Source of the DNA: Okamejei kenojei
Lineage: Eukaryota
NCBI GenBank assembly: GCA_035221665.1
Contig: CM069154.1
Location: forward strand, 2,542,001 to 2,606,000
DNA length: 64,000 nucleotides
Direction: 5' to 3'
A program made the translations under genes and the position numbers. Positions 4,368 to 45,238 of the stretch are shown piece by piece. A model generated the notes under the pieces. It searched no databases. It was not told the origin of the DNA and saw only the letters and a list, made by a program, of their open reading frames with translations. Every line of letters begins with the position of its first letter. Positions within the stretch are counted from its first letter, which is position 1.

Positions 4368-4895
4368 ATGGGACTGCAGAGATGGATAGGGTTCATGGTC
4401 CTTGTGGAGATGGTATGGCAAGTCTCCGGAACTGGAACAGATTCGATCTCCACAGAATGGGAAGAGGAAGCAAACTTGTCCGGGTGGAACGCACGGGCTC
4501 CTCGGCAAGTCAGCAATGAACAGCTTCCAAGATGCATGGACAAGCCAAGTTATGCCGGTCATCACCCTTTAATCATTAGTCTGCAGGTGGTCGTTGTGTC
4601 TCCGGGTGGTTCTATTACGCTGCCCTGTAAAATATCCAAGCATTACAGTAAACCTAGACTCGTCACATGGAAAAGAAATGGTGTTGCCATTGCCACGTAT
4701 CACGGTTGGTTTTCAGTGGGATATCAGGGATCTTATCCCCGCTGGAAGTTTGTGAATGACAACGTGTTCATACGTCGGGACGCCTCGTTGGTTCTGTGGG
4801 GGATACAAGAGAAAGATGCCGGGACATATACCTGCATTTGGTCCACTTCTCATCATGGAAAATGTCATGTATTGACCTGGCTGAAAATAGAGTGA
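4368..4895 (+). CDS. Predicted secreted single V-type Ig-domain prepro-protein, copy 1 (175 aa)
   Basis: Acceptor TTTCACCCACAG|GAAC ATG G (strong Kozak); hydrophobic N-terminus MGLQRWIGFMVLVEMVWQVSG; RAPR; Ig-V motifs GGSITLPC, VTW, DASL.L, D.GTYTC, TWLKI; no TM segment. Confidence 0.8.
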   Translation: MGLQRWIGFMVLVEMVWQVSGTGTDSISTEWEEEANLSGWNARAPRQVSNEQLPRCMDKPSYAGHHPLIISLQVVVVSPGGSITLPCKISKHYSKPRLVTWKRNGVAIATYHGWFSVGYQGSYPRWKFVNDNVFIRRDASLVLWGIQEKDAGTYTCIWSTSHHGKCHVLTWLKIE

Positions 4896-4957
4896 AACCT
4901 CCCATTGATTCAGCGGGGACCATCCCAGGGACGGTAGCAAAGTTTACCTAAACCCAC

Positions 4958-5482
4958 GTGTTCTACCGTTTGCGAAACACTTTAACTCCCCCTCCCATTC
5001 CCACACTGACCTTTCTGTCCTGGGCCGCCTCCACTGTCAGAGTGAGGCTGAGTGCTAATTGGAGGGACAGCACCTCAAATTTCACTTGGGCAGCTTATAA
5101 CCCGGTGGTTGGAATATTGGCTTCTCTAACGTCAAGTAACCCTTGCTTCCCGTCTCTCTTTGTCCCTCCCCCACCCTAGTCCTCCAACCAGTCTGTCTGC
5201 CTGATTACAATTTTTCTTTTAATACTTCATTGTCACCTTCCCCAGCTAACAATGATCAATTCTAGATGTTCCTTGAACATCGCCTCCTTTGATGTATAGT
5301 GTTCACACCTTATCTTTCCATATCTCTATATCTCCCTCTCCCCTGACACTCAGTCTGAAGAAGGGTCTTGACCTGAAACGTAACCCATTCCTTCTATCCA
5401 GAGTTGCTGTCAGTCCTGCTGAGTTACTTCAGCATTTTGTGTCTGTCTTTTGTGTAAACCAGCATCTGTAGTGCCTTCCTAC
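4958..5482 (+). mobile_element. Penelope-like element 3' fragment
   Basis: Decayed GIY-YIG C-terminus-like sequence (HFNSPSHSHTDLSVLG...QSEA) followed by the GAAGAAGGGTCT.GACC.GAAACGT tail. Confidence 0.55.
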
Positions 5483-5499
5483 CCAGTAGCAAAGCCTAG

Positions 5500-5830
5500 T
5501 TGAATTTAGGTTAGTTTAGTCCTGAGGTGCAACAGGGAAACAGGCCCTTCAGCCCACCGGGTCCGTGGAGACCAATGATCATCCCATGCAATAGCTCTAT
5601 CCCACACTCCAGAGACAATTTACACAGGCCAATTAACCTACAAACACGCACGTCTGGGATGTGGGAGGAAACCAGAGCACCCGGAGGAAACCCACATGAT
5701 CACAGTGAGAACGTTCAAACTCTGTACGGACAGCACCCGTAGTCAGTATTGAATCTGAGTCTCTGGCGCAGAATTGAATCTGAGTCTCTGAATCTGAGAG
5801 GCAGTAAATCTACCGCTGAGCCACCAGGCC
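5500..5830 (-). mobile_element. tRNA-derived SINE
   Basis: Reverse complement of the SINE family at 821-1218. Confidence 0.7.
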
Positions 5831-6206
5831 GCTAAGAAGTCGGGGGCAGGTCAGCACAAACACAATAACATCCGTTATCATAAACGTAACACGCTGAGAC
5901 CAAGCCCAGATTTGGAACTGGGACGAAGGTTTAAGGTGATCGGGGCAAGGTTTAAAAGGAACCTAAGGGACAACATTTACAGTTAGAGGGTGGTGGGTGT
6001 ATGGAACGAGCTGCCAGAGGAGGTAGTTGAGGCTGGTAATACAACAACATTTAATAGACTGATGAGTGGGTAGATGGACAGGAATGGTTTTATGGGGATG
6101 TGGGCCAAATGTAGTGAAATGGGATGAGCTTAAATGGGGTATATGGGTCTGCATGGGCGAGTTGGGCTGAAGTCCCTGCTTCCGTGCTGTATGACTTTAT
6201 GACACT

Positions 6207-6450
6207 AAGTAGGGAATAGTAAAGGTATAAAAATGAGCAGCATGGAAGGTGTGAGCGTGGATCGCAGGCAGTGAGGAGAACTGACCCTGCTTGCACCAGT
6301 AAATGTACGATTAATGGAAATAAACTCTCTTATGTTTGCTGGTGTGAGTGATTCTTTGTACGCCAGCATGGAGCTGAGTGTGAACTTTGTGCAACTCCTG
6401 CTCACTACGGGCAACATCACCAGATTAAGTGTCATGGAGTTGCCTTTAAA
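6207..6450 (+). other. Conserved 3' block of the Ig gene with putative poly(A) signal (copy 1)
   Basis: Block repeated at about 36758-36970 and 45576-45830; AATAAA at 6319, 36872 and 45688, with GT-rich sequence after it in copy 1. Confidence 0.55.
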
Positions 6451-6760
6451 TTAGTTTAGTTTAGTTCTGTTTTGCTTAGAGATACAGCGTGGAAACAGGC
6501 TCTTCGGCCCACCGAGTCCCATCCAACCAGTGATCCCCCGTACACTAGCTCTAACCTACACACTAGGGACAATTTACTGAAGCCAATTAACCTGCAAAAT
6601 CTGCACGTCTTCGCAATCTGAAAGGAAACCAGAGCACCCGTAGGAAACCCACCCGGTCACAGGGAGAATGTACAAACACCGTACAGACAGTACCTGTAGC
6701 CACAATCGAAGGCGGGTCTCTAGCGCTGTAAGGCAGCAACTCTACCGCTGTGCCACTGTA
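6451..6760 (-). mobile_element. tRNA-derived SINE shared by all three duplication units
   Basis: Same insertion, same flanks, at about 36970-37275 and about 45830/47696-47975. Confidence 0.8.
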
Positions 6761-7517: not shown

Positions 7518-8021
7518 TGAAAGAGTAAAAGTCATTATAAAGTATTGTAGGTTACAAAATGTACTCTGCTTATAGATTTAGAAGTATACAAAATGGGTGC
7601 CCAGCCATTGCCCTAGAGTCTGAACTTTCAGCTAAGGAAATGTGCAAACACTCAAGGTCAGAAGCAAACAGCTTGAATCTACAGAGATAAGGAATGCTCC
7701 TTCCTTGGTCATAACCATATATGAACAAAAGCTTTTCTGAAATCAGAAGAAACAATAGAGCTTTCATATTACCATATATGGACATGGTGGGACTCTGTGC
7801 AAGAATGTTCTATAAGATAAAGAATTGCTGAATTGCTGACTGATTTGGGTATATGTTTTGCATCTTTGTCTGGAACACAAGCAACTCTGTGTCTCTACTG
7901 TCGCACTCAGAGTTTCCTCCTACATCTGCCTGGCAAAATAAAGATGTTAATAAAGTTAGTAATAAGCAGTAATGTCTTTATTTCGTGTGGCTGTCTGTTT
8001 GAAGTGTATCGAACTTTAACA
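7518..8021 (+). mobile_element. 5' LTR of an endogenous retrovirus
   Basis: TG...CA ends; TATAA at about 7811, AATAAA at 7937; interrupts a SINE; followed directly by a PBS. The start coordinate is less certain than the end. Confidence 0.7.
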
Positions 8022-8022
8022 T

Positions 8023-8040
8023 TGGCGTAGTCGGCAGGAT
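8023..8040 (+). promoter_or_regulatory. Primer binding site, tRNA-Ser
   Basis: TGGCGTAGTCGGCAGGAT is the reverse complement of the 3' 18 nt of vertebrate tRNA-Ser (ATCCTGCCGACTACGCCA). Confidence 0.9.
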
Positions 8041-10390
8041 GTCACTGGAAACTATCTCTGGAGACTGAGTAAGAGGCTACGGTCTGGCCGTGACCTTGAA
8101 GGGAGTAGAAAGTGCACTATCAGATCCATTGAGTCTGAACTCCTGAGAGTGCCCGGGAACACAGTGGTCCCTCATCTGAGGTTGATCTAGTTCCCTGCCG
8201 AGAAACTTGACAGACAACATAACGTAAGACATTTTTGTTGATTGAGACTCGGGAACAAGTGCTCCAGTACCTAGATCGTAAATGGCTCCTGTGGGTCGAG
8301 GTTGCAGATAAACTATCTGTGGAAAATGTTGTTGATAAAGAGCCGATATGGAGATGAATAATGGGACAGGCTCGGGATAACAGTGACGTGGGAGCTCCGA
8401 GCTTCCGTACAACATATGTGTTATTTGGATCCGGGAATTTGGATCCGGGAAAACGTAAAGATTACATGATGATCAGGTGAAAGGATTTAAAAGAAAAGAG
8501 AATACAGTTAGCCTATAGAATAATAAACAATTGGTAATGCAAAAATGGAAACCTAAGCAAAATATCCACGGGGACCCCTTATCTGGCATGGAAACCCTGT
8601 TTATAGAGGTGGGGGATGAGGAATTGATTCAGGGGGAATAAGGAACAAGTTCGAGAATGGTGTAGACCACCACCCCATATGCACCCACCCCCTGAAGAAA
8701 ATGAGTGATAGCGACTCGGAAACTGTAAAGGAAGATGAGAAGGAAGAAGGGAATGGGCTGAGGCAGAAGAGGAAGGTTGTGCAGTAATTGAATCCATCAG
8801 TATAGATTGATTACTCCACACTAACCAATTGTAGTGCTTTATTTGGATCTGGGAGAGTGATTCCCAGACTTCATGCTGAGGTGTACTGTAAGTGATCTTT
8901 AATAAAATTATGTTGTACTACATTATGCGAATAGTACTACATTATACATCATTTACAATCAGTGAGAAAGTGAAACAAAAAGAGCAAAGGAAACACAAGG
9001 CCAAGAAACAACAGGAGACCACAAAGATAATACCAATGACAGCACTGCCAAATGCATTGGCTGAACCCGGACCGAATGGTCCGCCGGCAGTAATGCATGC
9101 ATACAGCCACTGGAAGCTGCAGGAGGTGCTGTTGATCTCTTAAAAATGCCCCAGACTGAATTAAAGATCTACCAGGATTATATTGCAGTCAACACTGACC
9201 ATGTATGAGGCAGCTGTGAGGGATGTGTTTGCCCGAACGTCCCCCATCCTAAATCCCACTGAGGGGGCACGATGGAAGGCCCTCTTGAGTGCCGCAACTT
9301 GGGCGGCTCTCGAGGCACTGTACCCGGATGACTCCGCAAGAATTGAGGCGGTGCTTACTGCCCTGACTCAATGCCTGAAACGACCTATTGATATAGACAA
9401 AGTGATTGAATGCAGACCCTTACCCTAGGAATCAGCGCATGATTTCTGGAAGAGAATTACGACAGCGTATCGTACCTTATGCAGGAGACGAGAACTTTAA
9501 CCGCGAACCAACAGTCTGCAGAGTTTAAAACAATCTTGAACAACTTAAGACCCTAAGGCTGCTCCACGGCTCAGCGGCGATACAGTGTGCTGATGGCCTT
9601 CTGTTTGCAAGTACAGAGATAAGGAGAATGCTGAGGACACTGATGAGCTACTAAAACCTTCCACTGCTGGGGTTACATTCTACCCAAAGGAAAGGTAGTC
9701 CGGGGCATACGCAAGTAAAATTTATGGTATATTGCTCAGTGCTACAGAACGAGCATTGACACCCACCCGGATGGATCCCATTGTGAATCACACCAGCCCA
9801 ACCACCCCTAAACAGATGAGGGCTTTTCTGGGCTTGGGTTAAATTCTGCCGGCAGTGAATCCCGGACGTGGCATTATACATTAAACTTCTGTCGCCCCTT
9901 GCCTCTGCTAAGGCACCGCAGCAATTCACTCTCTCAAAGAAGACTTTCACAATTTAAAAACAGCGCTGCCTACTGCACCAGCCACTGGTCGCCCCTTCCA
10001 GCTATGTGACGAACCTACTGCAAGCCTTAGCCCTCCCGGTCCACCAGCCATTATTAAGTGTAATGCCCATACGAGTGGCCATGACAAAGTCTCCCAAAGG
10101 AATGCCCTAGCTGACATTACTGCCCACACAGCAACTTGCAAATTCTGCACATTGGTCCCCACAGAACCATAGATTCTATTAGACAGAACGGCTCTGCCAC
10201 ACATGGGTGATGTAAAGTTAATGCAGGGGGACGCCTCTGCCGTGCAACGTGATTTTTGGAAATGAGAGTGTTCCTCTGTTGGCTCTTTGACGGGCCTCTG
10301 GCTCACCCCTCTCGGACAGGTTTGTGTACCTGATGCTTTTCTGTCCGTTCTTTTACACTATATACACTCCCTTACGCATGCTGGTAAGGA
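8041..10390 (+). mobile_element. Decayed ERV internal region (gag, deleted pol; no env or 3' LTR seen)
   Basis: Capsid-like IDIDKVIECR..ESAHDFW; RT MRAFLGLVKFCRQ.IP; RNase H IIKCNAHT...NALAD; integrase N-terminus HYIHSLTHAG. Confidence 0.75.
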
Positions 10391-10559
10391 GGGAAGGGAA
10401 TGTGGAATGTAGCTTACACTTTGAAGCTTTTATGAAATGGCCGTGTCTAAGAGGGAGGAGTTGCAGCAGCAGCAGCAGTAGAGAGAGAGAGAGTGTGGAG
10501 TGGGATACCAGGGATGTGTAAATGTGCAATTTGGGTCGAGACCGTTCTTCAGTATGCGT

Positions 10560-13940: not shown

Positions 13941-14646
13941 CCGTTGAGGTATGCAAATATTATTCCATCAGTCGCATGAGATGTGCTGACGATATTCAAG
14001 TCTGGGGTAGATTGTGACTGTTCAAAAACAGGTGGGGACAGATAACCTCTGATCCTTTTAGCTTACCAATCACATATGGTTATAAGATTGTGTTTCTAGC
14101 TGAATAATTCTCTCCGCGGCAAGTAAAGCCAAGACTCCCGTACATACGGTCTAAAGAGGAAATTATGGCTATCCAAGTTGAAATAGAGAAACTACACAAA
14201 AAGGGTGTGATTGAGCAGTCTGCCCATGAACAAGAGGGGTATATTTCTAATATCTTCTCCAGGTTGAAGAAAATTGGAAAATCATTCTATGATTTAGCTA
14301 GTCTGAACACGTGCTTGGAATATACCCGTTTTAAGATGGATATTTTTCATTCAGCAAAATAGCTGATTACAGAGGATTGCTTTATGGCTTTAATTGATCT
14401 CGAAGATGCATACTATCCAGTACCAATACACGAGAGCCACATTATATATCTGAAGTTTATCTGGCAAGGCCAGTTGTGGCAATGTTAGGCTCTACCTAAG
14501 GGGTTGAGTTCAGCAAAAAAGTTAGCTGTTTCAGCAACAAAGGCACTCCTAGAATATCTAGGGTTTGTTATTCATCCAGGAAAGTTCATACTGGAGCCAA
14601 CAAAATCTATTACCTAACTAGGTTTTGTCATAAACTCTGCAGATAT

Positions 14647-15275
14647 TTGCGGCCTATCACTGGATCGGAGCGGCCTTTCATACCTTAGACCGGGGACCAG
14701 ACCAGCGCTTCGGCAGCAGGGGCGCGGCACTGGATTCATTGCGGAGCGGGCGATGCCTTCCTGGATCGCCGTTTGGACCTGATGCTCCAACGTCACGGGG
14801 CTGTGGTTTGCGGAGCTCCCAACGTGGGCGGCGCTGACCAACATCGCAGAGTCCTGGGGCCCTTTGCCGAGGGTCGCCAGCGTAAATCTCCGCCCGGCGC
14901 GGCCTGGGGACGTCGGGAGCTGCGGACTCCGGTGGGAAGCGGCCGATTTGGAGGTCCAAGCCGCTGAGGTTGTCCTCCAGTCCCGACGTCGGAGAGCCAA
15001 CATCCTGGCGAGCAGGCTTGAGCGGCGGGCAGCCCGTAGCGGCGACTGCGAAGGGCTCCGGAAGCCCCGACCACGGGTGAACATCGAGGAAGAGACTGAC
15101 TTTGGTGCCTTCCCTCACAGTGGGAAACTTTTGATTCTGCTATGTGGGGATGTTTTATGTTGAACTCTATCGTGTGGTGTGTTCTTTATTTTATTGTATG
15201 GCTGTATGGTGATCACAGTTCACTGTACCAACTGGCACATGTGACAAATAAATATATCTTGTATCTTGTATCTTG
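14647..15275 (+). mobile_element. GC-rich non-LTR 3' fragment inserted in DIRS A RT
   Basis: (TCTTGTA)n tail; TSD AGATAT at 14641-14646 and 15276-15281; removing it restores INSADMSVT. Confidence 0.75.
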
Positions 15276-15684
15276 AGATATGTCTGTGACCCGATCCACA
15301 GATAAGAAACATAATATTGTAGAGGCATGCACAGGGTATAAATATCGCAAGATGCCACCAAAGACAATTCAAGACAATGTAACATGAATTATAGTGCCAA
15401 ATTGGCCTATTCATCCATTGTAAATAGGTCTGCTGGAAGAAGCTCCTATTTACTCACAGACACGAGCAGTGGTTAGTTCAACCAAACACGCGTGCATCTA
15501 TCAATGCATGGTTGTATGGAAAGGTTTTGTGAAGAGACACATGTGAGCTACTTTTAAACAGAAGTAGCAGAGGTTTGTGGGAAAAATAAAACAATGGAAA
15601 ATGTTTTGTGAGGATGCACACCTGAATTACTTTAAGGCAGAAGTAGCTGATGTTTTGGAATTTCTTTCAGTTTTGTTTTTTGTC

Positions 15685-16440
15685 TAAGTTATAGTGCTAT
15701 TATATAGTGGCGACCTGACTCGGCCCCGGAGCTGTAGCGGCAGAAGCGGCAGAAGCGGCAGAAGCGGCACCAGCGGCAGTGGCGACCCGACTCGGCCCCG
15801 GAGCTGCGGCAGCGTTTCAGCGGCAGCAGCAGTGGAAGTGGCGCCCCGACTCGGCCCCGGAGCTGTAGCGGCAGAAGCGGCAGCAGTGGAAGCGGCGGCC
15901 CGACTCGGCCCCGGAGCTGTAGCGGCGGCAGTGGCAGTGCCCGACCTCGGAGGCTCGGCCGCGGGCCCGGTGGACTCGGCCGCGGGCCCAGTGGACGACA
16001 TCGTCGGGAGCTCGCAGGTCACAGGTTGGTGACCTGTTTTTCCGGAGCTCCCGCAACGACAGCTTCGTCTACTGGTCTGGAGGGCAGCAGCTTCAGCAGC
16101 TTCGACCACCCCGGGCCGCGGAGTTTGCTCCGGCCCGTTCGCGGAGCACGGTTGAGCCATGGGACTTACTTACAATCACCCGGTGGGGTCACAACATCAG
16201 AAGCCTGGATCGCCTCGGCGCAGAGGGAGAACAAAGAGGGAAGAGACAGAGACTTTAAGACTTTGCCTTCCATTACAGTGAGGAGGTGTTTGGTCAACTC
16301 ACTGTGGTGGATGTTAAATTTGTGTCTATTGTGTGTTTTTGACATTTTTTTATTATATGTATGACTGCAAGGCAACGAAATTTTGTTCAGACCGAAAGGT
16401 CTGAATGACAAAAATAAAATTTAATTCAATTAAATTCAAT
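15685..16440 (+). mobile_element. Second GC-rich non-LTR 3' fragment with an internal minisatellite
   Basis: CCGACTCGGCCCCGGAGCTG repeats at 15715-15950; (AATTCAAT)-like tail; interrupts the YR of DIRS A. Confidence 0.6.
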
Positions 16441-17844
16441 ATTAACACTGCTTGCAGTGCTTTATCATCGTATTAACTCTGTATTAACACTGCTTGCAGT
16501 CGTACCTAGTGCTTGGGGTGGGACATCAAACTATTGGCACTCATCCATTGGTGTCAAAGTTCATGAAAGGTGTCTTTAATATGAACCCTCCAAGGCCTAG
16601 ATATAATGAAGTGTGGAATGTGAAAGTAGTTTTGAGTTTGCTTCGCAATCTGGCACTAGTTGCATCGCTGACGTTGGAACTGCTCACTCTTAAATTAGTG
16701 ATGCTTATGCCACTTATTTCTGTGCAAAGAGCTCAGTCTTTGCACAAACTCCGTCTGGATAACTCTGCTGTAACTGACAAGAAAGTGGTATTTTATGTGG
16801 ATGATCTGATAAAGCAGAGCAGGCCAGACACGGTGGGGTACGTTAGATCTGGCAGAATACCCACCGGATCGGAGATTGTGTGTTTGTATTGATGTGATGA
16901 AGTACATTGAGGTTACTAAAAACATTCAAGATGAGGAAAAAGCTTTCTTCACAAGTTATAAAAAGTCACACAAGAGAGTGTCGGTGCAGACTATTTCAAG
17001 ATGGATAAAGTGTACATGGTTGGAAGCGGGAGTGAATTCTGATATTTTCAAGTCTCACTCTACCAGGGCTGCAGCCACGTTGGCAGCAAATAGAATGGAG
17101 GTTCCTCTTGATCACATTCTTGCAACAGCAGAATGGTCAGATGAACGCATGTTTTGGAAGTTTTATAATAAACGTTTTGTCATAAAGATCATTCGGTATG
17201 TCAAGGGTTATTAATCTTTGTATAGTTTAGTTTAGTACAAGTAACCATATAACCATATAACCATATAACAATTACAGCACGGAAACAGGCCCTCTCGGCC
17301 CTTCCAGTCCGTGCCGACCATTTGTTTTCCCCTAGTCCCATCTACCTGCTCCATTCCCTCCATGCCCCTCCATGCCGAAATGACAGAAGGTTATAAAATT
17401 ATGAGAGCCAGATAGGGTAGACAGTCAGTACAAATTTCCCATTGTGCAAATGCCAAAGACTAGAGGGCATCACTTTAGGATGAGACGGGCAACAGTTAAA
17501 GATGTGCGGGGCACAGAGGGTGGTGGGTGACTGGAACCCGCTGCTGTGGGTGGTGGAGGCAGATACAATAGCTAAGAGGCTTTATCTAAAATATCTCATG
17601 GACATGCAGATAATAGAGGATTATGGATCACGTGCAGGCAGAGGAGATTAGTTTATCTTGGCATCATGTTCAGCACGGACATTGTGGGCCGAAGGGCCTG
17701 TTTCTGTGCTGTACTGTTCCATGTTCTATGTTATATAGTCTTCTCAATCACATCTTGAGAAGAACATTTTCCAGAGGTGCCACTGGTGTGATATTCATTA
17801 TATCTGCTGCAGTCAATGAGTGTGTTGTGAAAACAGCCAGAGGA

Positions 17845-20437: not shown

Positions 20438-20493
<56 letters not shown>

Positions 20494-24318: not shown

Positions 24319-25875
24319 ATTTCTCCAGAGATGCTGCCTGACCCGCTGAGTTACTGCAGCCTTTTGTGTTTATAATCTGTCATTGGACCAGCACCGATCC
24401 CTGAGGCACATCATTAGTCACTTTAACCTTGACACTCTTGGGTCAACTCCAAATTTAGGAGCAGCATTTTATTTCATTGTGACTGAAATCATGATGAGGG
24501 GAATAGATAGAGAGAGTGAAACCACAGCGTCTATTACTCAGGGTCGGGGAATCAAGAACCAGGGGACATTGGTTTAAGGTGAGAGGGGCAAGGTTTAATA
24601 GGAACTTTCTTCTTATCGAGTCCACACACAAGATTAGAAGTTGTTCAGCCTGAGCTCTGCACACAATGGTGTCTGTCTTGTCGCTTCTTGTGCGTGGTGG
24701 TGGGAAGATTGGTGGAATCAGGGCCGCGATGTGAACGCTCTTTCCTTGACCCCAATAGGAACCGGAGGGGCAACTTTTACACTCACCAGGTGGTGGGTGT
24801 ATGGAACGAGGTGGTTGAGGCGGGTAGTAGAACAACATTTAATAGACACTTTGAAGGGTATGTGCCCGTCCGAAAGTCTGTTAAACACCATTAGTGTATC
24901 TGCCTCCACCACCACCCCTGGCAGCATGATCCAGGCACCCACCCTCTGTGCAAAATAGTTGCCCTGCACATCTCCTTTAAACTTTGCCCCTCTCACTGTA
25001 GAGCTGTGCTCTCTAGTCGTTGACATTTCCATCCTTCTGCCGCTGGACATCGGGGGGCAGAGTCCGCTGGGACACCCCTCAAACAAAGGAAGGCAAATCA
25101 CCCCATGGAACCACATGAGGAGCAACAGTGTTGCTTTAACGACAGGTGCAAACACCACTGAGTATGACATTATTCAATGTTCACACACTGAGATTGGATG
25201 AAAAGTCTTTTCACACTGTGGAATTCTGTGGACTTCTCTGCCTCAGAGAGCGGTGGAGTCCGGTTCTCTGGATGCTTTCAAGAGAGAGCTAGATAGGGCT
25301 CTTAAAGATAGCGGAGCCAGGGGATATGGGGAGAAGGCAGGAACGGGGTACTGATTGGGGATGATCAGCCATGATCACATTGAATGGTGAAGCTGGCTCG
25401 AAGGGCCAAATGGCCTCCTCCTACACCTATTGTCTATTGTCTATTGTCTATTTTCACACGGTTTGTGTTGTGTCTTTTTTATTCTGAATAAAGTTGATTT
25501 CTGAAATTAGCCGACTGTCGTTCCTCCCTGGGGTTCACTGGGGCCATGACAAACCCAGTCCTGGGCCGACCGATGTTCTCTGTCTGTCGTCACCACTCCC
25601 CACTTCAACTCTCTCCTGACCAGCGACTTGTGGAACAGCTGCTCCACGAAGTGCTGTCCAGCAGTGGGCAGGGGTAGGTTACAGGTTGAGGGGGGTTGTT
25701 TGGGGAGAGGTGACACTGGCTCCCCGCACTACTGAGTATAAACTGTGAAACCAGCGCAGGTGCCAGGGCTGTGGTGGTGGCGTGGTGTGGCTGGGCCAGA
25801 CGTGGTGGAGACACAAGCAGGATGTGTTGGCCGCTGGCAGCTGGGGTGGCGTTGTTCTTGTTAATCGTTAACGGC

Positions 25876-26012
25876 TGATGCAACGACACGTTTGGCAGAG
25901 GGTGGAGAGGTCGCGGCTGACTCCGGCCAATGCTCCATGGGAGGCAGTGATTGGTTGAAAGTACATGAGCGCAGGCAATGAGGGTCAGGAGAAGCCGGGA
26001 GTAGGTATAAAA
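25876..26012 (+). promoter_or_regulatory. Promoter of Ig-gene copy 2 (ERSE and ACGT core mutated)
   Basis: TGATGCAAC 25876; CATGG-N9-ATTGG 25936-25954; TACATG 25962; TATAAAA 26006. Confidence 0.6.
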
Positions 26013-26831
26013 GGAGCGAGCGATGGCAGAAGATGAGAACAAGACTGGCCTCGTCACCCTGTGTGGAGACTCCGGAGCTGGTAAACAACCCCTGTGGATC
26101 CTTCAAGTGCCTGTGAGTGATGGGGGTTGAATTGTCTCTGTTCACTGTTCCCCCAGTTCAGAAGCCTGACAGCAGAGGGGAAGAAGCTGTTCCTGAGTCT
26201 GGTGGTGCGCGCTTTCAAGCTTCTGCACCTTCTGCTGGATAGGACCAGGGAGAAGCAGGAATGACCGGGGTGGGACAAGTCACGGAGTCATAGAGTCATA
26301 CAGCGAGGTCTACGGCCCAACTTGCCCGCGTCCACCAACTTGTCCCATCAAACCTACACCCACCTGCCTGCGTTAGGCCCTTACCCCTCTAATTCTGTCC
26401 TATCAATGTACCTGTCTAACTGTTTCTTAATCATTGTGATAGTAACTACCTCTTCCGGCAGCTCGTTCCAAACACCCTCCACCCTTTGTGTAAAAAAGTC
26501 ACCCCTCAGTTTCCCATTAAATCTTTCCCCTCTCACCTTAAACTGATGTCCTCGGGTTCTCGATTCCCCAACTCTGGGCGGGTTCAGAGAATGTCATCAT
26601 GAATCCTACTGAGTTGCAATAAGATGACCCATTGTTTCACCCACAGGAACATGGGACTGCAGAGATGGATAGGATTCATGGTCCTTGTGGAGATGGTGTG
26701 GCAAGTCTCCGGAACTGGAACAGGTTCAATCTCCAGAGAATGGGGAGAGGAGGCAAACTTGCCCGGGTGGAACGCACGGGCTCCTCGGCAAGTCAACGTT
26801 AAAAGCTTCCAAGATGCATGAACGAGCCAGA

Positions 26832-29800
26832 TTTTACTTCGGAGTCACGTGAGTGACTACGTGAAGACCCCGCCAGCACGCATGCGCGACATATCATCGA
26901 ACGCATTGCGGAAGCGACAGTCGGAGGAGCGCCGCTCCTCCAGCGCAAGTTTTGAAAAATTACGGAAGGTAAGTCTTACCTTTTCTGGTGAGCGTGGCGA
27001 CTCGGTGTGATTTCTTTTTCAGAACGGAGGAAGCACCATGGAGTCGCGCAAGGGAGAGCAGCAGCTGATACCGCTGCTGTGGAAGCAGCCAGCAGCGTGC
27101 CGTCTCTCCAGAGCTGCAGGTGCTGCCAGCAGCTCCCGGCTTCTCGCCGCTACAGACCGCAGGTGCGCCGCGGTCGGCGGCAAAACCACCCGGAAGTCGG
27201 ACAGGTCCGTTGACTCGGCTGGGTCCGGACCTGAAGACAGCCCGTTCCCGGATAGGGACGGCGGGCGTCTTTCCCGCGGGAGCGGATGGGGAGCAGTGCT
27301 CCAGCGTGACCTGCTTATGCAGGGGCAGAGTCACAGTGGGTCTCCTCGCAGACCCACGGCAGCATCCTTTCAAGGACTGCAAAATGTCTCACCCTCTTCG
27401 CAGGGGAGCATTAGGGGTCAGAGCTGGGCTGACCCTGAAACATAGAAACATAGAAATTACGTGCAGGAGTAGGCCATTCAGCCCTTCGAGCCTGCACCGC
27501 CATTCAATATGATCATGGCTGATCATCCAACTCAGTAACCCGTACCTGCCTTCTCTCCATACCCTCTGATCCCCTTAGCCACAAGGGCCACATCCAACTC
27601 ACTCTTAAATATAGCCAATGAACTGGCCTCAACTACCCTCTGTGGCAGAGAGTTCCAGAGACTCACTACTCTCTGTGTGAAAAAAGTCTTTCTCATCTCG
27701 GTCTTAAAGGATTTCCCCCTTATCCTTAAGCTGTGACCCCTTGTCCTGGACTTCCCCAACATCGGGAACAATCTTCCTGCATCTAGCCTGTCCAACCCCT
27801 TAAGAATTTTGTAAGTTTCTATAAGATCCCCTCTCAATCTCCTAAATTCCAGAGAGTATAAACCGAGTCTATCCAGTCTTTCTTCATAAGACAGTCTTGA
27901 CATCCCAGGAATCAGTCTGGTGAACCTTCTCTGCACTCCCTCTATGGCAATAATGTCCTTCCTCAGATTTGGAGACCAAAACTGTACGCAATACTCCAGG
28001 TGTGGTCTCACCAAGACCCTGTACAACTGAAGTAGAACCTCCCTGCTCCTGTACTCAAATCCTTTTGCTATGAAAGCTAACATACCATTCGCTTTTTTCA
28101 CTGCCTGCTGCACCTGTATGCCTACTTTCAATGACTGGTGTACCATGACACCCAGGTCTCGCTGCATCTCCCTTTTTCCTAATCGGCCACCATTTAACTA
28201 ATAGTCTGCTTTCCTGTTTTTGCCACCAAAGTGGATAACCTCACATTTATCCACATTATACTGCATCTGCCAAACATTTGCCCACTCACCCAGCCTATCC
28301 AAGTCACCTTGCAGTCTCCTAGCATCCTCCTCACAGCTAACACTGCCCCCCAGCTTAGTGTCATCCGCAAACTTGGAGATATTGCCTTCAATTCCCTCAT
28401 CCAGATCATTAATATATATTGTAAATAGCTGGGGTCCCAGCACTGAGCCCTGCGGTACCCCACTAGTCACTGCCTGCCATTGAAGAAGGGGCAATGGCTG
28501 AACAGTCAACTGTGAGGGGTGCCAGAAGAGAGAGCAGCAGAAGATTTGTGGGAACACATGCTGTATCAACTCAAGAAGGACTGCCTATACAAAGCTGCAA
28601 GCCAGTACAAAATACATGGCTACAAACCAGCTACAGGAGCAAGCAATTAACTTTATGGCTGGGAAGTACATTGCTCCAGAGAACTCCACTTCTCTTAAAG
28701 TACCAGCAGTTTATGACCCCATCTGGGGCAACAGGAGCCCATCTATAAGGAGCCAGGAGGGGAAGCTCCAGAGGAAACTGCTGGCTGCTAAAATCACAGC
28801 AGTACCAGGACAACTGATGGGGTTGATTTGCCTGAAGAGTTACTAGATGCTCTAGCAGACTGTGTAATACTCAGTGGAGATTAACAGTTACAGAAAGAGC
28901 ATCATCAAGAAGTGCGGATTTATGCAAGACAGGCGCCAAAATTGCTGTTGGGGGACCTCCCGAAGCAGGTGAAAGACCTGCATGAGGAAGCCAAGGCTAT
29001 AGGCCTGATCAAGGTGCCAAGCACCTCTAAAACCCACTATCAACAGCGGCAGCACCCCTACACACCCACCAGACATCGGTGCTATGGAAGACCATCTGGT
29101 GGTGAAAGCTCGAGGGCCGGCCCACCTGCACAGCGGTCTTTCAGACCATGGCCCAGCCCGGCCTTCATGGAAAGTGCGCCAACCCCACAACGCAGCAACA
29201 CAATACCAGAAGAAACAACTGCGGAGACAACCCACACAACACCGGTAACCATGGAGGTAGGTGGGTCTGGTTGTCTTAAAAAACATTGCATGTCCGATTC
29301 ATCAAAAGTTGGGGGACGGTTGCACTTGTTTCATCATGTGTGCTGCACTTTTACCTCTGAACTTTTACATACTCGGAAGTATTCAGAATTACAAAATTGA
29401 ATTTGTATACGAACTACCGTCCCAGTTCAGCATACGCCTAGCAGGAAGTTCATACTTCACAAAAAGAGAGAACAGCAGGCCATGCTGAACTGTTAAGACT
29501 AAACACAAAAGGGATTGAGAAAACAATCAGAGAATTTCAAGAGTTCGTATCAAATATATTTATAAAAAACTAAAAAGATGGTGGTTGCCGTATCATTACA
29601 GATTTGAGCGAACTAAATACTTCCGTTCAGTATGCCCATTTCAAAATAGACACGTTTGTCACACACAGGGTCATCGTAAATACCTGAAATTTATCTGGAT
29701 GGGACAGCTATGGCAGTATGCCTTATCCAATGGGTTGTCATCAGCACCCAGGCTATTACAAATTTATTAAAACCAGCTTTAGCATACTTAAAGAAACATA

Positions 29801-32476
29801 ACCATATCGTCATGGCTTACCTTGATGATATTCTCATTGTAGGTGAAAATTGGACCTGGCTACATTGGTGGTATCAGCCGCAACACAGAGATTTAACGTA
29901 CATCCAGATAAATCAAAATTGGAACCCTCCACTACCATGGATTATTTGGGGTTCACTATTGACTCTGTTCATATGTCTATCACCTTGCCACCAAACAAAG
30001 TGACAGACTTGATGGGAGTATGCAAAAGCCTCACTGGCATCAGGGAACCATCCATTCGGCAAGGAGCAAGAGTGATTGGGAAATTGGTGGCTGCGTTCCC
30101 AGCAGCACAATTGGACCACTCCATTATTAAAACCTGGAAGAGGGAAATTTTAGCTCTCAAAAATCATGCAGGCCATTTCAATAGGCCTATGCAACTACCA
30201 GGGAAAGTAAATCAGAATTAAACTGGTAGATAGAAATGTTCAACATTATCCTAACCCCATCACCCCATTCTATATCCCTAGGGTACATTACAGACTGATG
30301 CCAGTGCTAAAGGTTGGGGAGCAACTAATACCACCGCAAGTTGTGGTGGCAGATGAGTGCACAAAAATTATTCTGTTTAAAGCACTAGGAATTAATTATC
30401 TAGAAATGCTGGGAGCGTTTCATGGACTCAGGGCCTACTGCTCAGATGAGCACCAGTTGCATGTACGGTACAAATTGATACCACAGTGGGGGCCTATATA
30501 TAATCATATGGGTGAAATAAAGTCGATATCATGTGATGAATTGGCTAATAATATCTGGCACTGGTGTCTGGGAGAGAGATTTGGATCTCAACCACTTACC
30601 TTCCAGGTAAGCTAAATACAGTGGCAGACATCAGGTCACGTAAATTCAACGACAACATTAAATGGATGTTGGATCGGAAAGTGTTTACAGATATTATAGA
30701 CCGGTATGGGACACCAGATATCGACCTTTTTTCCATCCGGACTAATTCACCAACTACCAACATATGTTGCTTGGGAACCAGACCCAGGGGCAGCAGCGAT
30801 GGACGATTTCTCGCTGCATTGGGGGGGGGGGGGATTTGTTTTGCTATGCATTTTCCCCTTCTGCCTCATCAGGCGAGTCTTACAATAATTAAACAAGACG
30901 CCGCAACGGGTACCATGGTTCCCAACAGTACAAAGATGGTCTCAGAACGCTGCATCTGGATCAACAACGGCCAAGGAGGTTGGCACACCCCGTGCGGGAA
31001 AGTATCCGTGCCATGACTGTATGAACTTGTTGATTTGCAGTTTCTGAACAGGCCATTTCTGGGATACAGACTCTCCGACAGGACGATCAATGCCATCTCA
31101 GCGTCGTGCAGGGAGTCCACGAGAAGACAGTACCTGACATGTGTCAGGAAATTGGAAGTGTTCTGCACCAGGACGAACACTACATATGACTCAGCCACTA
31201 ACACTGAAGTGCTGGAATTCTGGCCACCCTTCATTTCGATGAAGGATTGAGTTACAGTGCCATTATTGTGCAAGGAGTGCCCTATCTAATATCTGGGCAG
31301 AGGGAGTGATCACCTGGCTATAGGATCACACCCACTAGTACCTAAACGAATGAGGGGTATTTGTACTCTATTCCCCCCAGGCCCAGATACACCCATATAT
31401 GGGACATAGGTAGTACACCATGTTACGAGGATGGACACCAATATCGGGGCTCACTCTAGACAAACTAATATCCTAGATGGGAATGATTATGGCACTTGGA
31501 TCAGCACAACGGGTCCAGTCCTTACACAAGCTAGAATAGGACGTCATGTCTGTCACAAATGGCAGATAACCTGCTACATACAGGGGTACTTAAACAAGAC
31601 TGACCCGGTTCCTCTGGCCAATATTAGAGTTCTGGCCTATCCTGCAGATAGTCGGCCCTGCATAGTGACACATATTTTCCAATATATAGTCACCAAGACA
31701 CTTATGGGCACGGAGAGAGCTTTCTCATTAGCCATAAATGCCCTCACCTAAGGTCACAGTGCAAACCATATCCAGATGGTTCGGGTGGTATTACGTGCAG
31801 TGGTGGATACTAATGTTTCAAATCTCACTCCAACAGGGCTGCATCTACATCGGACGCTAGGATGATGGGAGTTCCTATGGACCACATCCTTGCCACAGCG
31901 GTGTGGAGCAATGAACGCATTCAATGCTTTATAATAAACCCGTGGCCGATCCTGAGACGTTTGCAGGGAAAAATTAAGTTCTGTAAAATAAATTACCCAA
32001 TGTGGGGCATATTATTTTAGGTATGAATAATACCTTTATTGTTTTTCAGCACAGTGTCGTGTGTGAAATACGTTCATCCTCCGTCCCAGAATGGCAGTGT
32101 GTGAGCATGGTCTCGTTCCAGGGCATGAAATCGCAGAGCTTTGAAATCTTCACGTAGTCACTCACGTGACTCCGAAGTAAAATAGTAAGATTAAATGAGA
32201 ACTTACCAGTTTGAAGTTTGATCTTTATTTTATGAGGAGTTACGATGAGGGATTACGTGCCCTCCGCTCCCAAAACCCTCTATTATAAAGTTCAACTGGT
32301 ATGGAAGTTCTCTCTTATCTTACTATATTAGTCTACTCTGGTATGTGATTTCACACCACTGCTTTGAAGAATGTCGCGCATGCGTGCTGGCGGGGTCTTC
32401 ACGTAATCCCTCATCGTAACTCCTCATAAAATAAAGATCAAACTTCAAACTGGTAAGTTCTCATTTAATCTTACTA
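26832..32476 (+). mobile_element. DIRS retrotransposon B, both termini intact
   Basis: Left ITR TTTTACTTCGGAGTCACGTG; ICR at about 32147-32259 complementary to both ends; right end ...CTTACTA; decayed gag, RT (MAYLDD), RNase H, methyltransferase-like domain (30706-30888) and YR. Confidence 0.95.
27439..28482 (-). mobile_element. CR1 LINE 3' fragment nested in DIRS B
   Basis: ORFs 28198-28569 and 27532-28167; (CATAGAAA)n tail. Confidence 0.95.
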
Positions 32477-33027
32477 TTCTGCTGCATACAGTCATATCCT
32501 AACATCGCTTTAAATGAAGGAGCTTGTTGCATCTCTGGGTGGTTCTATTACGCTGCCCTGTAGAGCATCCAAATATTACGATGGTGCCTTGTTTGTTAAA
32601 TGGAGAAAAGATGGTGTTGAAATTGCCAGTTACAACAGTAGAACGCTTGCGTCTTATGAGGCACCAGATGTCCGCTGGAAATTCGTGCATGAAAGCGTCC
32701 ATTCGAAACTGGACGCCACGTTGCTCCTGACAGGTGTAAAAGAGAAAGATAAAGGGATGTATTCCTGTGTTTGGTCGAAGAGTACTGATGATCCGGTATG
32801 TGAATTATTGACCCAGCTGACGATCTCCCACTGATTCAGTAGGGCCCATCCCAGGGTCAGTAGCAAAGTCTAGTTTAGTTTAGTTCAGAGGTACAGCAGG
32901 GAAACAGGCCCTTCGGCCCACAGAGTCAACCGGGACCAGTGATCACCCCATATATAGTTCTGTCCCACACACGCTCGATACAATTTACACTGATCAATTA
33001 ACCTACAAACATGCACGTCTCTGGGAT

Positions 33028-36219: not shown

Positions 36220-36730
36220 GGATTCCAAAGAGGAAGAAAGATTCCAAGGGGAGTAAGGGGCAACCATGGCTGACAAGGGAAGTCAGGGACAGTATAAAGA
36301 TAAAAGAGAACAAGTATAACATTGCAAAGATGAGCGGAAAGCCAGGGGATTGGCCAACTTTTAAAGAGCAACAGAAGATAACTAAAAAAGCAATATGGGG
36401 AGAAAAGATGAGGTATGAAGATAAGCTAGCCAAGAATATAAAGGAGGATAGTAAAATCTTCTTTAGATATGTGAAGTGGCAAAATTGGACCCTTAAAGGG
36501 CGAATTTATTATGGGGAACTAGGAAATGGTAGACGAGTTGAACAGGTACTTTGGATCTGTCTTCACTAAGGAGAACACAAACAATCTCCCTGATGTACTA
36601 GTGGCCAGAGGATCTGGGGACAAGGGAGAGCCAGTGGATGTAGTGTACCTGGACTTTCAGGAAGCATTTGATAAGGTCCCACATAGGAGATTAGTGGGCA
36701 AAATTAGAGCACATGGTATTGGGGGAAGGG
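36220..36730 (+). mobile_element. Deleted CR1 ORF2 fragments (related piece at 45310-45545)
   Basis: PWLTREVRDSIK; VDVVYLDFQEAFDKVPH. Confidence 0.8.
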
Positions 36731-37489
36731 CCTGTTCCCGTGCTGTTTGACTATGGCACTAAGTAGGGAATAGTAAAGGTATAAAGATGAGCAGCATGGA
36801 AGGTGTGAGCGTGGATCGCATGCAGTGAGGAGAACTGACCCTGCTTGCACCAGGAAATGTAAGATTCATGAAATAAACTCTCTTCTGCATGGAGCTGAGT
36901 GTGAACTTTGTGCAACCCCTGCTCACTACGGGCAACATCACCAGATTAAGTGTCATGGAGTTGCTTTTAAATTAATTTAGTTCTGTTTTGCTTAGAGATA
37001 CAGCGTGGAAACAGGCTCTTCGGCCCACCGAGTCCCATCCAACCAGTGATCCCCCGTACACTAGCTCTAACCTACACACTAGGGACAATTTACTGAAGCC
37101 AATTAACCTACAAATCTGCACGTCTTTGCAATCTGAAAGGAAACCAGAGCACCTGGAGGAAACCCACACGGTCACAGGGAGAACATACAAACACCGTACA
37201 GACAGTGCCCGTAGTCACAAACGAAGGCGGGTCTGTAGCGCTGTAAGGCAGCAACACTACCGCTGTGCCACTGTACCACCCATGCATTGCCCTCATGCAT
37301 TGTTAGGGCTGCTGATTAGAGTCCCGTTTTGACCCTCGTTGGGGGTGTGTAGAGAAGTTGTGTTAACTCTGCTGACCAGGACGGAGGTCACAAGCTTCCT
37401 TCTGATCTCTGTATGGAGTCTGGTCTTCCAGCTAAAGACCCACACCACCCTGTCCACACACTCTCTTCTCACCACTACCGAGGGGAAAA

Positions 37490-37872
37490 AAACATAGAAA
37501 CATAGAAATTATGTGCAGGAGTAGGCCATTCGGCACTTCGAGCCTGCACCGCCATTCAATATGATCATGGCTGATCATACAACTCAGTATCCTGTACCTG
37601 TCCTCTCCATACCCCCTGATCCCTTTAGCCACAAGAGCCACATCCAACTCCCTCTTAAATATGGCCAACGAACTGGCCTCAACTTCCTTCTGTGGCAGAG
37701 AATTCCACAGATTCACCACTCTCTGTGTGAAAATCGATTTTCTCATCTCGGTCCTAAAAGATTTCCCCCTTATCCTTAAACTGTGACCCCTTGTCCTGGA
37801 CTTCCCCAACATCGGGAACAATCTTCCTGCATCTAGCCTGTCCAACCCCTTAAGAATTTTGTAAGTCTCTGT
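37490..37872 (-). mobile_element. CR1 LINE 3' fragment
   Basis: ETYKILKGLDRLDAG...; (CATAGAAA)n tail. Confidence 0.9.
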
Positions 37873-39070: not shown

Positions 39071-39071
39071 A

Positions 39072-42711: not shown

Positions 42712-43476
42712 GTAAGGGAGTGGGGCGGAGTGATTGAGCGAGAGTAGGTGGTAGGGAGGGAGAGGGGGGAATCTGAGGGGGATGAGGAGGGAGAGTGGGG
42801 GAGGAGGAGGAATAGAGGGAGAGGAGGGGCGTTGACCCGACAATGAAATCACAATGGGATCTCAGCTGCCAATCAACAGTGTTGAGATAAGCTCCAGCCA
42901 GTGCAATGAGAGATTTCTTACATCGTTTTAAGGAGAGGTAGGGAGGGGAGGTGAGGGAGAGAGTGACTGAGGGTAGGGAAAAGGAGAGGGAGGGAAAGGT
43001 GAGGGAGGGAGTGACTGAGGGTAGGGAAAAGGAGAGGGTGGGAGAGGTGATGGAGGGAGTGGAGAAAGGGAGGAGGAGAGGCGAGAGAAGGAGGAGAGTG
43101 AAGAGGAGGGGGAGGGAGTGTACGAGACCCTGCGCAGTTGTGGGCTATGGGTGAGTGGTGGAAAATTGCGTTGGGGGAATTTGTACATCGCAATGGAATC
43201 TCAGTTAGATTTCTTGGGAGGAGGTTTCTCATTGTAGGGGGTGAAATAGGGGAGAGGTTTTATTTACTCCTTACTCATTTACAAAATAATCACGATTGTG
43301 GGGAGGGGTAGGAAGGGGGGGAGCTCCCCGTTTCATTGGGGGGGGGTTGGAATAAGAGAGAGGTTTCATTTCCAGAATTTTACTTGTGGGGTGGTGGGGT
43401 CAGTATTGGGGGCTATGGGTGAGTGGTGGAATATTACGTTGGGGGAATGGAGCCCAACGGGTCCCACTTGGTCTAG
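42712..43476 (+). mobile_element. Helitron-like non-autonomous element with purine-rich low-complexity core
   Basis: Ends with hairpin-like CCCAACGGG, then CTAG|T at 43473-43477; related pieces at 38120-38250, 48500-48610 and about 52000. Confidence 0.45.
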
Positions 43477-43913
43477 TAATCATTATTTATTTAATGTTTC
43501 ATGTTTACACCAATCTTTCCACCACCACACACAAGCAGCACAAGAAGCGACAAGACAGACACCATTTTATGCAGATGCCAAGAAGTGTGTACAGCTCTGG
43601 CTGAACAACTAATCTTGTGTGTGGACTCGATAAGAAAAGTATTTAATATCTTAGTGTAATACAGTCACAGAGTGATACAGCATGGAAACAGGCATTTCGG
43701 CCCAACTTGCCCACATTGGACAACATGCCCCAGCTACACTAGTCCCACCTGTCCGGGTTTGGTCCATATCCCTCCAAATCTGACCTATCCATGTTCCTGG
43801 CTAACTGTTTCTTAAATGTCGGGATAGTTTCTGCCTCAACTGCGATGGTTGGCCAGAGCGAGACATGGTGGAGACACAAGCAGGATGTGTTGTTCTTGTT
43901 AAACGTTAACGGC

Positions 43914-44050
43914 TGATGCAACGACACGTTTGGCAGAGGGTGGAGAGGTCGCGGCTGACTCCGGCCAATGCTCCGTGGGAGGCAGTGATTGGTTGAAAGT
44001 ACGTGAGCGCAGGCAATGAGGGTCAGGAGAAGCCGGGAGTAGGTATAAAA
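43914..44050 (+). promoter_or_regulatory. Promoter of Ig-gene copy 3
   Basis: TGATGCAAC 43914; perfect reverse ERSE 43974-43992; TACGTG 44000; TATAAAA 44044. Confidence 0.7.
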
Positions 44051-44698
44051 GGAGCGAGCGATGGCAGGAGATGTAAACAAGACCGGCCTCGTCACCCTGT
44101 GTGGAGACTCCGGAGCTGGTAACCACCCCAGCGGATCCTTCAAGTGTCTGTGAGTGATGGGGGTGGGATTGCCTCTGTTCACTGTTCCCCCAGTTCAGAA
44201 GCCTGATAGCAGAGGGGAAGAAGCTGTTCCTGAGTCTGGTGGTGCGCGCTTTCAAGCTTCTGTACCTTCTGCTAGACAGGACCAGGGAGAAGGAGGAATG
44301 ACCGGGGTGGGACAAGTGATGGAGTCATAGAGTCATATAGCGAGTCCTTCGGCCCAACTTGCCCGCGCCCACCAACTTGTCCCATCTAAACTAGACCCAC
44401 CTGTCTGCGTTAGGCCCTTACCCCTCTAATCCTGTCCTATCAATGTACCTGTCTAACTGTTTCTTAATCATTGTGATAGTACCTGCCTCAACTACCTCTC
44501 CCGGCAGCTCGTTCCAAACACCCTCCACCCTTTGTGTAATAAAGTCACCCCTCAGTTTCCCATTAAATCTTCCCCCCCCCCCCACCTTAAACAGATGCCC
44601 TCTGGTTCTCGATTCCCCAACTCTGGACGGGTCAGAGAATGTCATCATGAATCCTACTGAGTTGCAATAAGGTGACCCATTGTTTCACCCACAGGAAC

Positions 44699-45238
44699 AT
44701 GGGACTGCAGAGATGGATAGGATTCATGGTCCTTGTGGAGATGGTGTGGCAAGTCTCCGGAACTGGAACAGGTCCGATCTCCAGAGAATGGGGAGAGGAG
44801 GCAAACTTGCCCGGGTGGAACGCACGGGCTCCTCGTCAAGTCAACGATGGACAGATTTCAAGATGCACGGACAAGCCAGGTTCCAACAGTGATCACCATG
44901 AATTGATTGGCACGAATATGCTCTATGCATCTCTGGGTGATATTATTACGCTGCCCTGTAAAGTATCCCAAGATTACAATCAACTCTCGAATGTTACTTG
45001 GAGAAAAGAGGGTGTTATCATTGCCAGGTATGCTATTAAACCGTCTGACAAATATAAGCGATCTGTTGGCCGCTGGAGGTTTGAGCATCCAGATGTCCAT
45101 GTGAAACAGGATGCCTCGTTGATCCTGGCAGGCGTACAAGAGAATGATGCAGCGTCATATTCCTGTGTCTGGTCCACTGTTGATAATAAGGAATGTGAAG
45201 TATGGACCTGGCTGACAATCAATGAAAACGCCCACTGA
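44699..45238 (+). CDS. Predicted secreted single V-type Ig-domain prepro-protein, copy 3 (179 aa)
   Basis: Same acceptor, Kozak, signal peptide and RAPR as copy 1; Ig motifs ITLPC, VTW, DASLIL, DAASYSC, TWLTI. Confidence 0.8.
   Translation: MGLQRWIGFMVLVEMVWQVSGTGTGPISREWGEEANLPGWNARAPRQVNDGQISRCTDKPGSNSDHHELIGTNMLYASLGDIITLPCKVSQDYNQLSNVTWRKEGVIIARYAIKPSDKYKRSVGRWRFEHPDVHVKQDASLILAGVQENDAASYSCVWSTVDNKECEVWTWLTINENAH

Follow-up and report, generated by a model that had tools for sequence, protein, structure and literature searches.

A 64,000-nucleotide stretch of the genome of the skate Okamejei kenojei (GenBank assembly GCA_035221665.1, contig CM069154.1; hereafter the window, positions 2542001-2606000 of the contig that we call C24) carries three units of a gene family in which a leader is followed by a single V-set immunoglobulin (Ig) domain. 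We refer to copies 1, 2 and 3 of the window as W1, W2 and W3; their parts all lie on the plus strand. W1 opens with a promoter-like block and exon 1 (3506..3821) containing CCAAT-like boxes and the motif TATAAAA, the end of the exon being placed by a GT donor and by the exon-joined Leucoraja and Logan proteins described below. A GT..AG intron with two repeat relics follows (3822..4363), the central one, resembling a short interspersed element (SINE), being common to 6 of the 10 copies found in this genome. The coding sequence (CDS; 4368-4895, 175 amino acids) runs through a leader (4368..4511), in which hydropathy points to a probable signal peptide (about residues 1-21) followed by an acidic pro-segment and the motif RAPR-QV, and a mature part (4512..4895) made up of a Cys-bearing linker, a V-set Ig domain and the stop. 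Downstream lies a family-specific 3' block (6169..6512) with AATAAA, possibly the end of the 3' untranslated region. W3 repeats this plan: promoter-like block and exon 1 (43860..44149, with TATAAAA at 44044-44050 and an in-frame upstream ATG at 44061), intron with repeat relics (44150..44694), leader with signal, pro-segment and RAPR-QV (44699..44842), mature part with a linker bearing C56 and an IgV domain bearing C87, W101, C156 and an extra C166 (44843..45238; CDS 44699-45238, 179 amino acids), and 3' block with AATAAA (45549..45893).

W2 is a pseudogene. Its 5' module and leader (25777..26833, with a 56-residue open reading frame, or ORF, at 26651-26821) are frameshifted near the leader end, and a transposon of 5.7 kb, whose ends are approximate (26834..32473, with a nested long interspersed element (LINE) piece at 27437-28480), separates the leader from the Ig part. 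Beyond it lie an orphaned linker and Ig domain (32474..32834, the domain open over 32514-32831), closest to Leucoraja LOC129708938/939 (62%), and a 3' block shifted by a LINE insertion (36725..37028).

The upstream Met in exon 1, where the Leucoraja models start, lies 11 nt past the TATA-like box and is lost from W1 through a 35-nt deletion downstream of that box, although most other copies retain the ATG; for these reasons the second Met is the likelier start. The TATA-like box itself (window 44045 and matching sites) is altered in copies B, E, C and F, three of which are intact, and may therefore not be the sole start signal. A 900-nt Logan contig encodes an exon-joined member with a CDS of 606 nt; since the intron would add about 545 nt, the contig is too short to hold both, which suggests that in some skate a family member gives rise to a spliced transcript. 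We also considered whether the units are a long terminal repeat (LTR) element with a captured gene. This was rejected: alignment scores between the 5' and 3' blocks (36 and 42) do not exceed the 95th percentile of shuffles (42-43), and both blocks are confined to family copies and their vicinity. Promoter pieces of the family, short and either inverted or isolated, occur near copy Z and upstream of the cluster (L022 ~3415-3465, C24:29132504-29132693 and 2484799-2484919).

A family of probably secreted single-IgV proteins in batoids

The Okamejei genome holds at least ten copies, six intact (B, C, E, W1, W3 and Z) and four broken (A, D, F and W2). Nine are clustered at C24 2.494-2.587 Mb; the tenth, copy Z, is dispersed and lies at 29.14 Mb, 26.6 Mb from the cluster. 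Database relatives comprise eight Leucoraja erinacea models (LOC129708937-946), one from Rhinoraja longicauda (LOC144605155), a single Logan protein and, from the electric ray Narcine bancroftii, a protein annotated as 'nectin-1-like' (XP_069798310.1) that has the same layout as the skate members. The Leucoraja, Rhinoraja and Narcine members are annotated by automatic NCBI models only. Database searches thus far place the family in skates and one electric ray. A profile search for wider relatives recovered the same 8 proteins among 3470 candidates, the Narcine member used as query matched itself alone among 200, an all-length search gave just two full-length relatives among 56 matches, and the ESM Atlas offered generic Ig clusters only. 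No shark or chimaera member turned up in these searches, which do not establish absence. We found no paper on the family in a literature search whose coverage stopped short of subscription journals and supplements, and no mention of six of the LOC and XP identifiers. The family and its architecture thus appear to be undescribed beyond automatic annotation; the underlying evolutionary mechanism is already known.

All 16 aligned proteins share a hydrophobic N-terminal segment, an acidic pro-segment, a single V-set domain and four invariant Cys in the mature part (C56, C87, C156 and C166 in W3). The four Cys belong to 23 columns, including the Ig core, that are invariant out to the electric ray. 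The V-set hallmarks C87, W101, D150 and C156 (the B- and F-strand Cys, the C-strand Trp and D-x-x-x-Y-x-C) are among the invariant residues, and C56 and C166 would form an extra disulfide. In a Pfam scan that covered 143 of the 241 ORFs of at least 110 amino acids in the fetched region, V-set scored 30.9-33.3 bits against a cut-off of 26 in all three window copies, and an AlphaFold model gave a V-type all-beta sandwich (mean confidence score, pLDDT, 66.9; Ig strands mostly 77-91, leader of low confidence). A homodimer prediction of W3 residues 47-179, which did not use the alignment, scored 0.00, a value that we do not read for or against a dimer.

Leader and Ig domain share one exon, and an RxxR motif precedes the mature part in 13 of the 16 proteins; cleavage of the pro-segment would take place there. 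None of the 16 has a C-terminal hydrophobic stretch, the stop codon following the G strand. A membrane anchor and cytoplasmic tail are absent from the ORFs, a statement that does not extend to an alternatively spliced anchor exon, for which no search was made. These features suggest that the proteins are probably secreted.

Old paralogues with a probably converted 5' module

The sequence-only reading had set a nearly invariant leader against a hypervariable Ig domain, and the contrast is real. Between W1 and W3, 43 of 48 leader residues (1-48) are identical, as against 46 of 98 in the Ig domain (78-175), without an indel (Fisher p = 2.7e-7). Variability peaks in the linker that joins RAPR to the Ig domain (49-77), where 8 of 29 residues are identical; the mature part as a whole retains 67% nucleotide and 43% protein identity. 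Divergence also sets in as abruptly as had been described: in 60-nt windows identity stays within 90-100% between 43889 and about 44790 and then falls to 88, 73 and 58%, the last within 100 nt, with the drop starting at the RAPR-QV codons. Promoter and intron are nearly identical as well, the 5' non-coding DNA differing at 30 of 768 sites. The same had been said of the 3' flank and does not apply there, as some 50 nt align past the stop, followed by unrelated repeats and only then by the 3' block, which adjoins 6 of the 10 copies and is 91% identical between W1 and W3 and 79% between W3 and W2.

Two causes had been proposed for this contrast, strong diversifying selection on the released domain or, alternatively, gene conversion homogenizing the flanks, with the rate at synonymous sites as the means of telling them apart. 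Synonymous divergence (dS) of the W1-W3 mature part is 0.42+/-0.10, as high as nonsynonymous divergence (dN, 0.45+/-0.06) and far above the 0.04 of 5' non-coding DNA, the outcome that the sequence-only reading had named beforehand as a refutation. Conserved codons contribute 26 four-fold sites, of which 6 differ, a Jukes-Cantor distance of 0.28 (Fisher p = 7e-4 against the 30 of 768), so that the mature part is between 7 and 10 times (0.28-0.42) as diverged at synonymous sites as its 5' flank. We therefore conclude that the contrast mostly reflects old paralogues with converted 5' flanks. Conversion is its main source; diversifying selection is not, and likely acts in addition, at loop sites.

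The age of the mature domains is evident across species, where they pair by type: C is 91% identical to LOC129708945, W1 84% to LOC129708937 and B 76-77% to LOC129708940/942. For these three copies mature-domain orthologues of different genera are thus 76-91% identical, compared with about 32-47% among the intact types themselves. A single clade of the seven rows from this genome is rejected (approximately unbiased test, p = 1e-50); copies D and F, whose Ig parts are broken, and E, which is nearly identical to B, were excluded from trees and site models. Orthologous contigs from two other organisms, found in two studies, cover window 4463-4999 with 33-34 differences in 538 nt, ungapped (93.7% identical). 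The 5' module groups by genome. Leader residue 21 is A in all eight named Leucoraja proteins and G in all nine cluster copies here, and exon-1 residue 8, D in every one of the 8 Leucoraja proteins, is D in none of the eight copies here that have the codon.

Exchange between copies can be seen directly. Copy D is a recombinant whose informative sites are all W1-like up to the match of 44091 and all B-like from 44147 on; it switches once, inside exon 1, where a 25-kb segmental duplication has its junction. Six copies of differing Ig type share the SINE-like relic of the intron at 92-98% identity; its genomic relatives match it at 80-86%, and yet the Ig types that share it are far older (C and W3 differ at 10 of 19 four-fold sites). 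In unique 5' DNA the dispersed copy Z is 10-12% diverged, compared with 2-5% inside the cluster.

The pattern amounts to concerted evolution that leaves a divergence peak, and the signature is that of opsin and RH genes. The accessible part of one source (PMC3924837) describes divergence peaks under gene conversion at red/green opsin exon 5 and in RHCE/RHD, where, as here, flanks are more alike within than between species and a functional segment is divergent and orthologous across species. By comparison with what is described there, the skate peak spans the whole mature protein (~380 nt; W3 and the other intact types are 55-67% identical in nucleotides), involves at least five types and has an edge that coincides with a predicted cleavage site. 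A divergence peak under conversion is itself read as an indication that the segment is held apart by selection.

We hold with considerable confidence that the contrast arose in an old tandem family through ectopic recombination and conversion re-copying the 5' module. The mature domains would have split into types before the skate genera separated, and ectopic recombination and gene conversion would keep re-copying promoter, exon 1, intron and leader among members of the cluster. A tract that ran past the RAPR-QV codons would, by copying the mature part, wipe out a difference that selection maintains, which would be why tracts end there; high divergence past these codons may then block further pairing. 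As a divergence peak under conversion the case is unusually clean: a single genome offers a recombinant copy, an intron relic that has spread laterally and, as a control, a dispersed copy.

Probable positive selection on the binding face

Conversion and positive selection are not mutually exclusive, since mean dN/dS is about 1 or above despite the invariant framework: overall values for the window copies are about 1.1-1.5, and those of the intact sets under model M0 are 0.95-1.14. Selection was tested with our own codon-model script under F3x4 codon frequencies. For the Ig domain of seven copies, models with a positively selected class fit better (M1a/M2a p = 2e-4, M7/M8 p = 2e-4, M8a/M8 p = 6e-5), with about 29% of sites at a dN/dS of 2.6. 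A five-copy subgroup gave p = 4e-7 and a dN/dS of 4.7 (p = 1e-7 under another topology), the three window copies p = 1e-4 (M1a/M2a), sets leaving out W2 or A p = 9e-6 and 4e-4, and three intact copies, Ig only, p = 0.028. Of 11 site tests 8 were significant, with intact-only sets non-significant in three of four; a class with a dN/dS of 2.6-5.4 is placed at loop sites, though not in every subset.

Sites with high posterior probability (W3 numbering: 95-98, 107, 115-118, 131-135, 151, 161-164 and 175) fall mostly in the BC, C'C'' and FG loops. These are the segments that the sequence-only reading had quoted as differing among the copies, and all of them are found in the three window copies as quoted. 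Two of these loops carry the lock and key motifs of nectins. We think it probable that loop sites on the nectin binding face have, in addition, changed under positive selection.

Kinship with PVR and nectins

In a profile search against solved structures the eight best matches are the first domain (D1) of PVR/CD155 (best E 3e-14), followed by CD226, JAML and nectin-2; the top Foldseek matches are CAR and nectin-1 D1, and hhalign gives 97% probability to a nectin-like exon elsewhere in the genome. By these profile and fold matches, the domain is best described as a derived, apparently secreted offshoot of the PVR/nectin family and not as a nectin proper. The accessible text of PMC8981293 lists three motifs for PVR/nectins, (V/I)(S/T)Q, AX6G and T(F/Y)P; at matching positions in our 16 proteins these are found in 0, 4 and 1 (Narcine), respectively. 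Relative to PVR/nectin D1 (CD155, nectin-1/2, CD226, TIGIT), the skate proteins have one domain, no membrane anchor, an added pro-segment, a second Cys pair, and leader and Ig in one exon. Nectin-like V exons with an intact T-F-P or related key motif occur at L024:4049-4387 (minus strand) and L025 ~3414-3728 (plus strand), on the small contigs C316 and C963, and are candidates for the parental family.

Other origins fit less well. A B7/VTCN1-like parent nearby was rejected, 1 of 58 matches being on the window's contig and 18 Mb off, and so was a viral origin, as matches in BFVD are generic Ig folds at 12-24% identity, lower than cellular nectins. The exons are not rearranging Ig, T-cell receptor or new antigen receptor (NAR) V segments, as G strand and stop share the germline exon and there is no F/W-G-x-G motif; recombination signal sequences were not scanned.

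Two known systems offer parallels, the second a looser one. The bat CEACAMs resembling pregnancy-specific glycoproteins (PSGs) are described in the accessible part of PMC5594555 as secreted, expanded from an adhesion receptor exploited by pathogens, under diversifying selection in IgV and proposed to be decoys. The skate genes are expanded too, and would further resemble them, as there described, in being secreted derivatives of an adhesion receptor with an IgV domain diversified by selection; they differ in their parent family, the lack of a placenta, the RxxR pro-segment and number (~10 genes here, ~100 there). No CEACAM ancestry was seen among the best 60 of 66 profile matches. The variable-region chitin-binding proteins (VCBPs) of amphioxus are, in the part of PMC2632668 available, non-rearranging polymorphic IgV genes with copy-number variation, pseudogenes and chitin-binding domains. 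Our family shares with that description non-rearranging IgV genes, pseudogenes and an association with chitin-binding domains, but a VCBP chain combines two V domains with a chitin-binding domain, whereas the skate ORFs have a single V and no CBM14. Membership in the VCBPs thus fails; the CBM14 exons belong to chitinases and, beside W3, lie on the opposite strand.

Function and competing explanations

We tentatively propose, by analogy with bat PSGs, that these germline genes supply a small repertoire of decoys or recognition proteins, secreted and directed against microbes. A secreted single IgV with a pro-segment would have been derived from a PVR/nectin-type adhesion receptor, and the face with which nectins bind their partners, and which viruses use as a receptor, would differ from type to type. 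The set would then work in soluble form, as decoys or for recognition, plausibly on a mucosa that makes the neighboring chitinases. Taken as a whole, the account that combines conversion history, loop selection and such a role is in our judgment somewhat favored. If it is true, a secreted, diversified, nectin-derived IgV repertoire would be added to the innate arm of cartilaginous fish, in parallel to mammalian PSGs. The family has so far been seen in batoids alone, including a model skate, so expression and binding are testable at once.

Several observations pull the other way. The five intact copies give p = 0.12 (mature) and 0.28 (Ig), and three intact copies, mature part, p = 0.054. The site test is liberal, 7 of 60 null simulations having passed the 5% threshold, although none of the 60 reached the observed 18.4; recombination and multi-base changes, which can inflate a selection test, were not simulated. 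That four copies are broken fits turnover and weak constraint alike. None of the three nectin signature motifs is retained in W1 or W3, three of the 16 proteins (among them W1's Leucoraja orthologue) lack RxxR, and secretion is predicted from hydropathy, with a Glu in the h-region. Linkage to the chitinases may be accidental.

The main idea of the sequence-only reading, recent duplicates under explosive positive selection on the mature domain with no conversion, now has almost no credence from us. Such a pattern is known for some venom genes, and the sharp boundary at the cleavage motif, the overall dN/dS of the window copies and a low four-fold divergence in 2 of 21 pairs (0.09) would fit it, but it is already contradicted by synonymous sites 7-10 times more diverged than the flanks, by Ig types common to another skate genus, and by the exchange that the recombinant copy and the intron relic show directly. 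An account that keeps the 5' conversion and lets the mature part drift under relaxed, near-neutral evolution, with no adaptive diversification, is unlikely to suffice. It accommodates the near-unity M0 ratios and mostly non-significant site tests of the intact sets, as well as the fraction of broken copies; against it stand the 23 invariant columns reaching the electric ray and orthologues 84-91% identical across genera with open frames, and drift leaves unexplained why conversion ends at the same codons in all types.

The competing explanations of function share this history. The strongest of them, which we think possible yet clearly less probable than a decoy role, is a role in reproduction or chemical signaling (seminal, egg-jelly or skin secretions). 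Domains of the nectin type serve in cell adhesion, sperm included, secreted proteins in reproduction and signaling also diversify fast, and W1 has a weak Izumo-Ig Pfam match below the cut-off (E 0.049). Single-IgV secreted PSGs are, as far as the accessible part of PMC5594555 goes, reproductive as well as defensive. Several types side by side in each genome and common to species would nevertheless fit a repertoire better than a species-specific key. We regard as very improbable the suggestion of the sequence-only reading that a toxin or direct antimicrobial is released by convertase cleavage, for which nothing speaks but the pre-pro layout (a signal, an acidic pro-segment, RxxR in 13 of 16 and a variable mature part) and the cationic charge of some types (+8 to +12). 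Net charge spans -14 to +12 across types, the structure matches listed are Ig-superfamily receptors and antibodies within which the domain is PVR/nectin-like, and the W1 orthologue has no cleavage site. To our knowledge, skates have no venom spine. The charge counts behind that suggestion are right for W1 (13 K/R and 5 D/E over residues 78-175) and nearly so for W3 (12 K/R and 12 D/E, not 13, the thirteenth acidic residue being an E within four extra C-terminal residues). A shift in W1 does not follow from them; its Leucoraja orthologue has +7 to the +8 of W1, so the positive charge is not recent.

A bolder version of the decoy or recognition proposal, which we consider quite unlikely, would make these proteins non-rearranging, single-V 'innate nanobodies', secreted, derived from a nectin domain and activated by loss of a pro-segment, with a common promoter kept by conversion and co-expressed with chitinases. 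V recognition would then work jointly with chitin binding or hydrolysis, in mucus or the gut, and a jawed vertebrate would have a split counterpart of the protochordate VCBPs.

Genomic setting

The nine clustered Ig genes are interleaved with a chitinase array, an arrangement that we attribute to shared duplication of neighbors; shared expression of the two is a guess. All 50 GH18 matches listed lie at C24 2.11-2.67 Mb, amounting to at least some 14 gene units by the count of one exon, and 10 of 15 CBM14 matches fall in the array region. In the window, the first GH18 catalytic-domain exon of a chitinase gene (232..429, minus strand) is head-to-head with W1, and the CBM14 (chitin-binding) last exon of a chitinase gene (49325..49468, minus strand) is tail-to-tail with W3. 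Some units of the array (2.10-2.67 Mb) have stops, two loci have tandem CBM14 matches, and the whole looks like a skate chitinase expansion. The 25-kb segmental duplication (C24:2497112-2519244 and 2521973-2543846, reaching into window 1-1846; 97-98% identical) carries two Ig genes and a chitinase, and could have arisen recently or represent a haplotype left uncollapsed. The acidic chitinases of vertebrates are typically gastric. Chitin has reportedly been found in the ampullae of Lorenzini (preprint 10.1101/687301). Elsewhere, C2:4.75-4.78 Mb has five CBM14 matches in 25 kb with no GH18 match listed, perhaps a peritrophin- or mucin-like gene.

The transposon that splits W2 resembles an element at ~53.8-58.4 kb that encodes a reverse transcriptase (RT) and a tyrosine-recombinase SAM domain, and both would be DIRS-like. 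With a third stretch at ~14600-19600, these two (26834-32473 and 53800-58400) form a set of related retroelements, apparently DIRS-like, in which matches to RT and tyrosine recombinase go with inverted motifs at the termini. At ~7700-10400 a repeat end, then a primer-binding-like site near 8020 and broken frames can be made out by eye, which we take to be a decayed LTR-retroelement or endogenous-retrovirus-like stretch.

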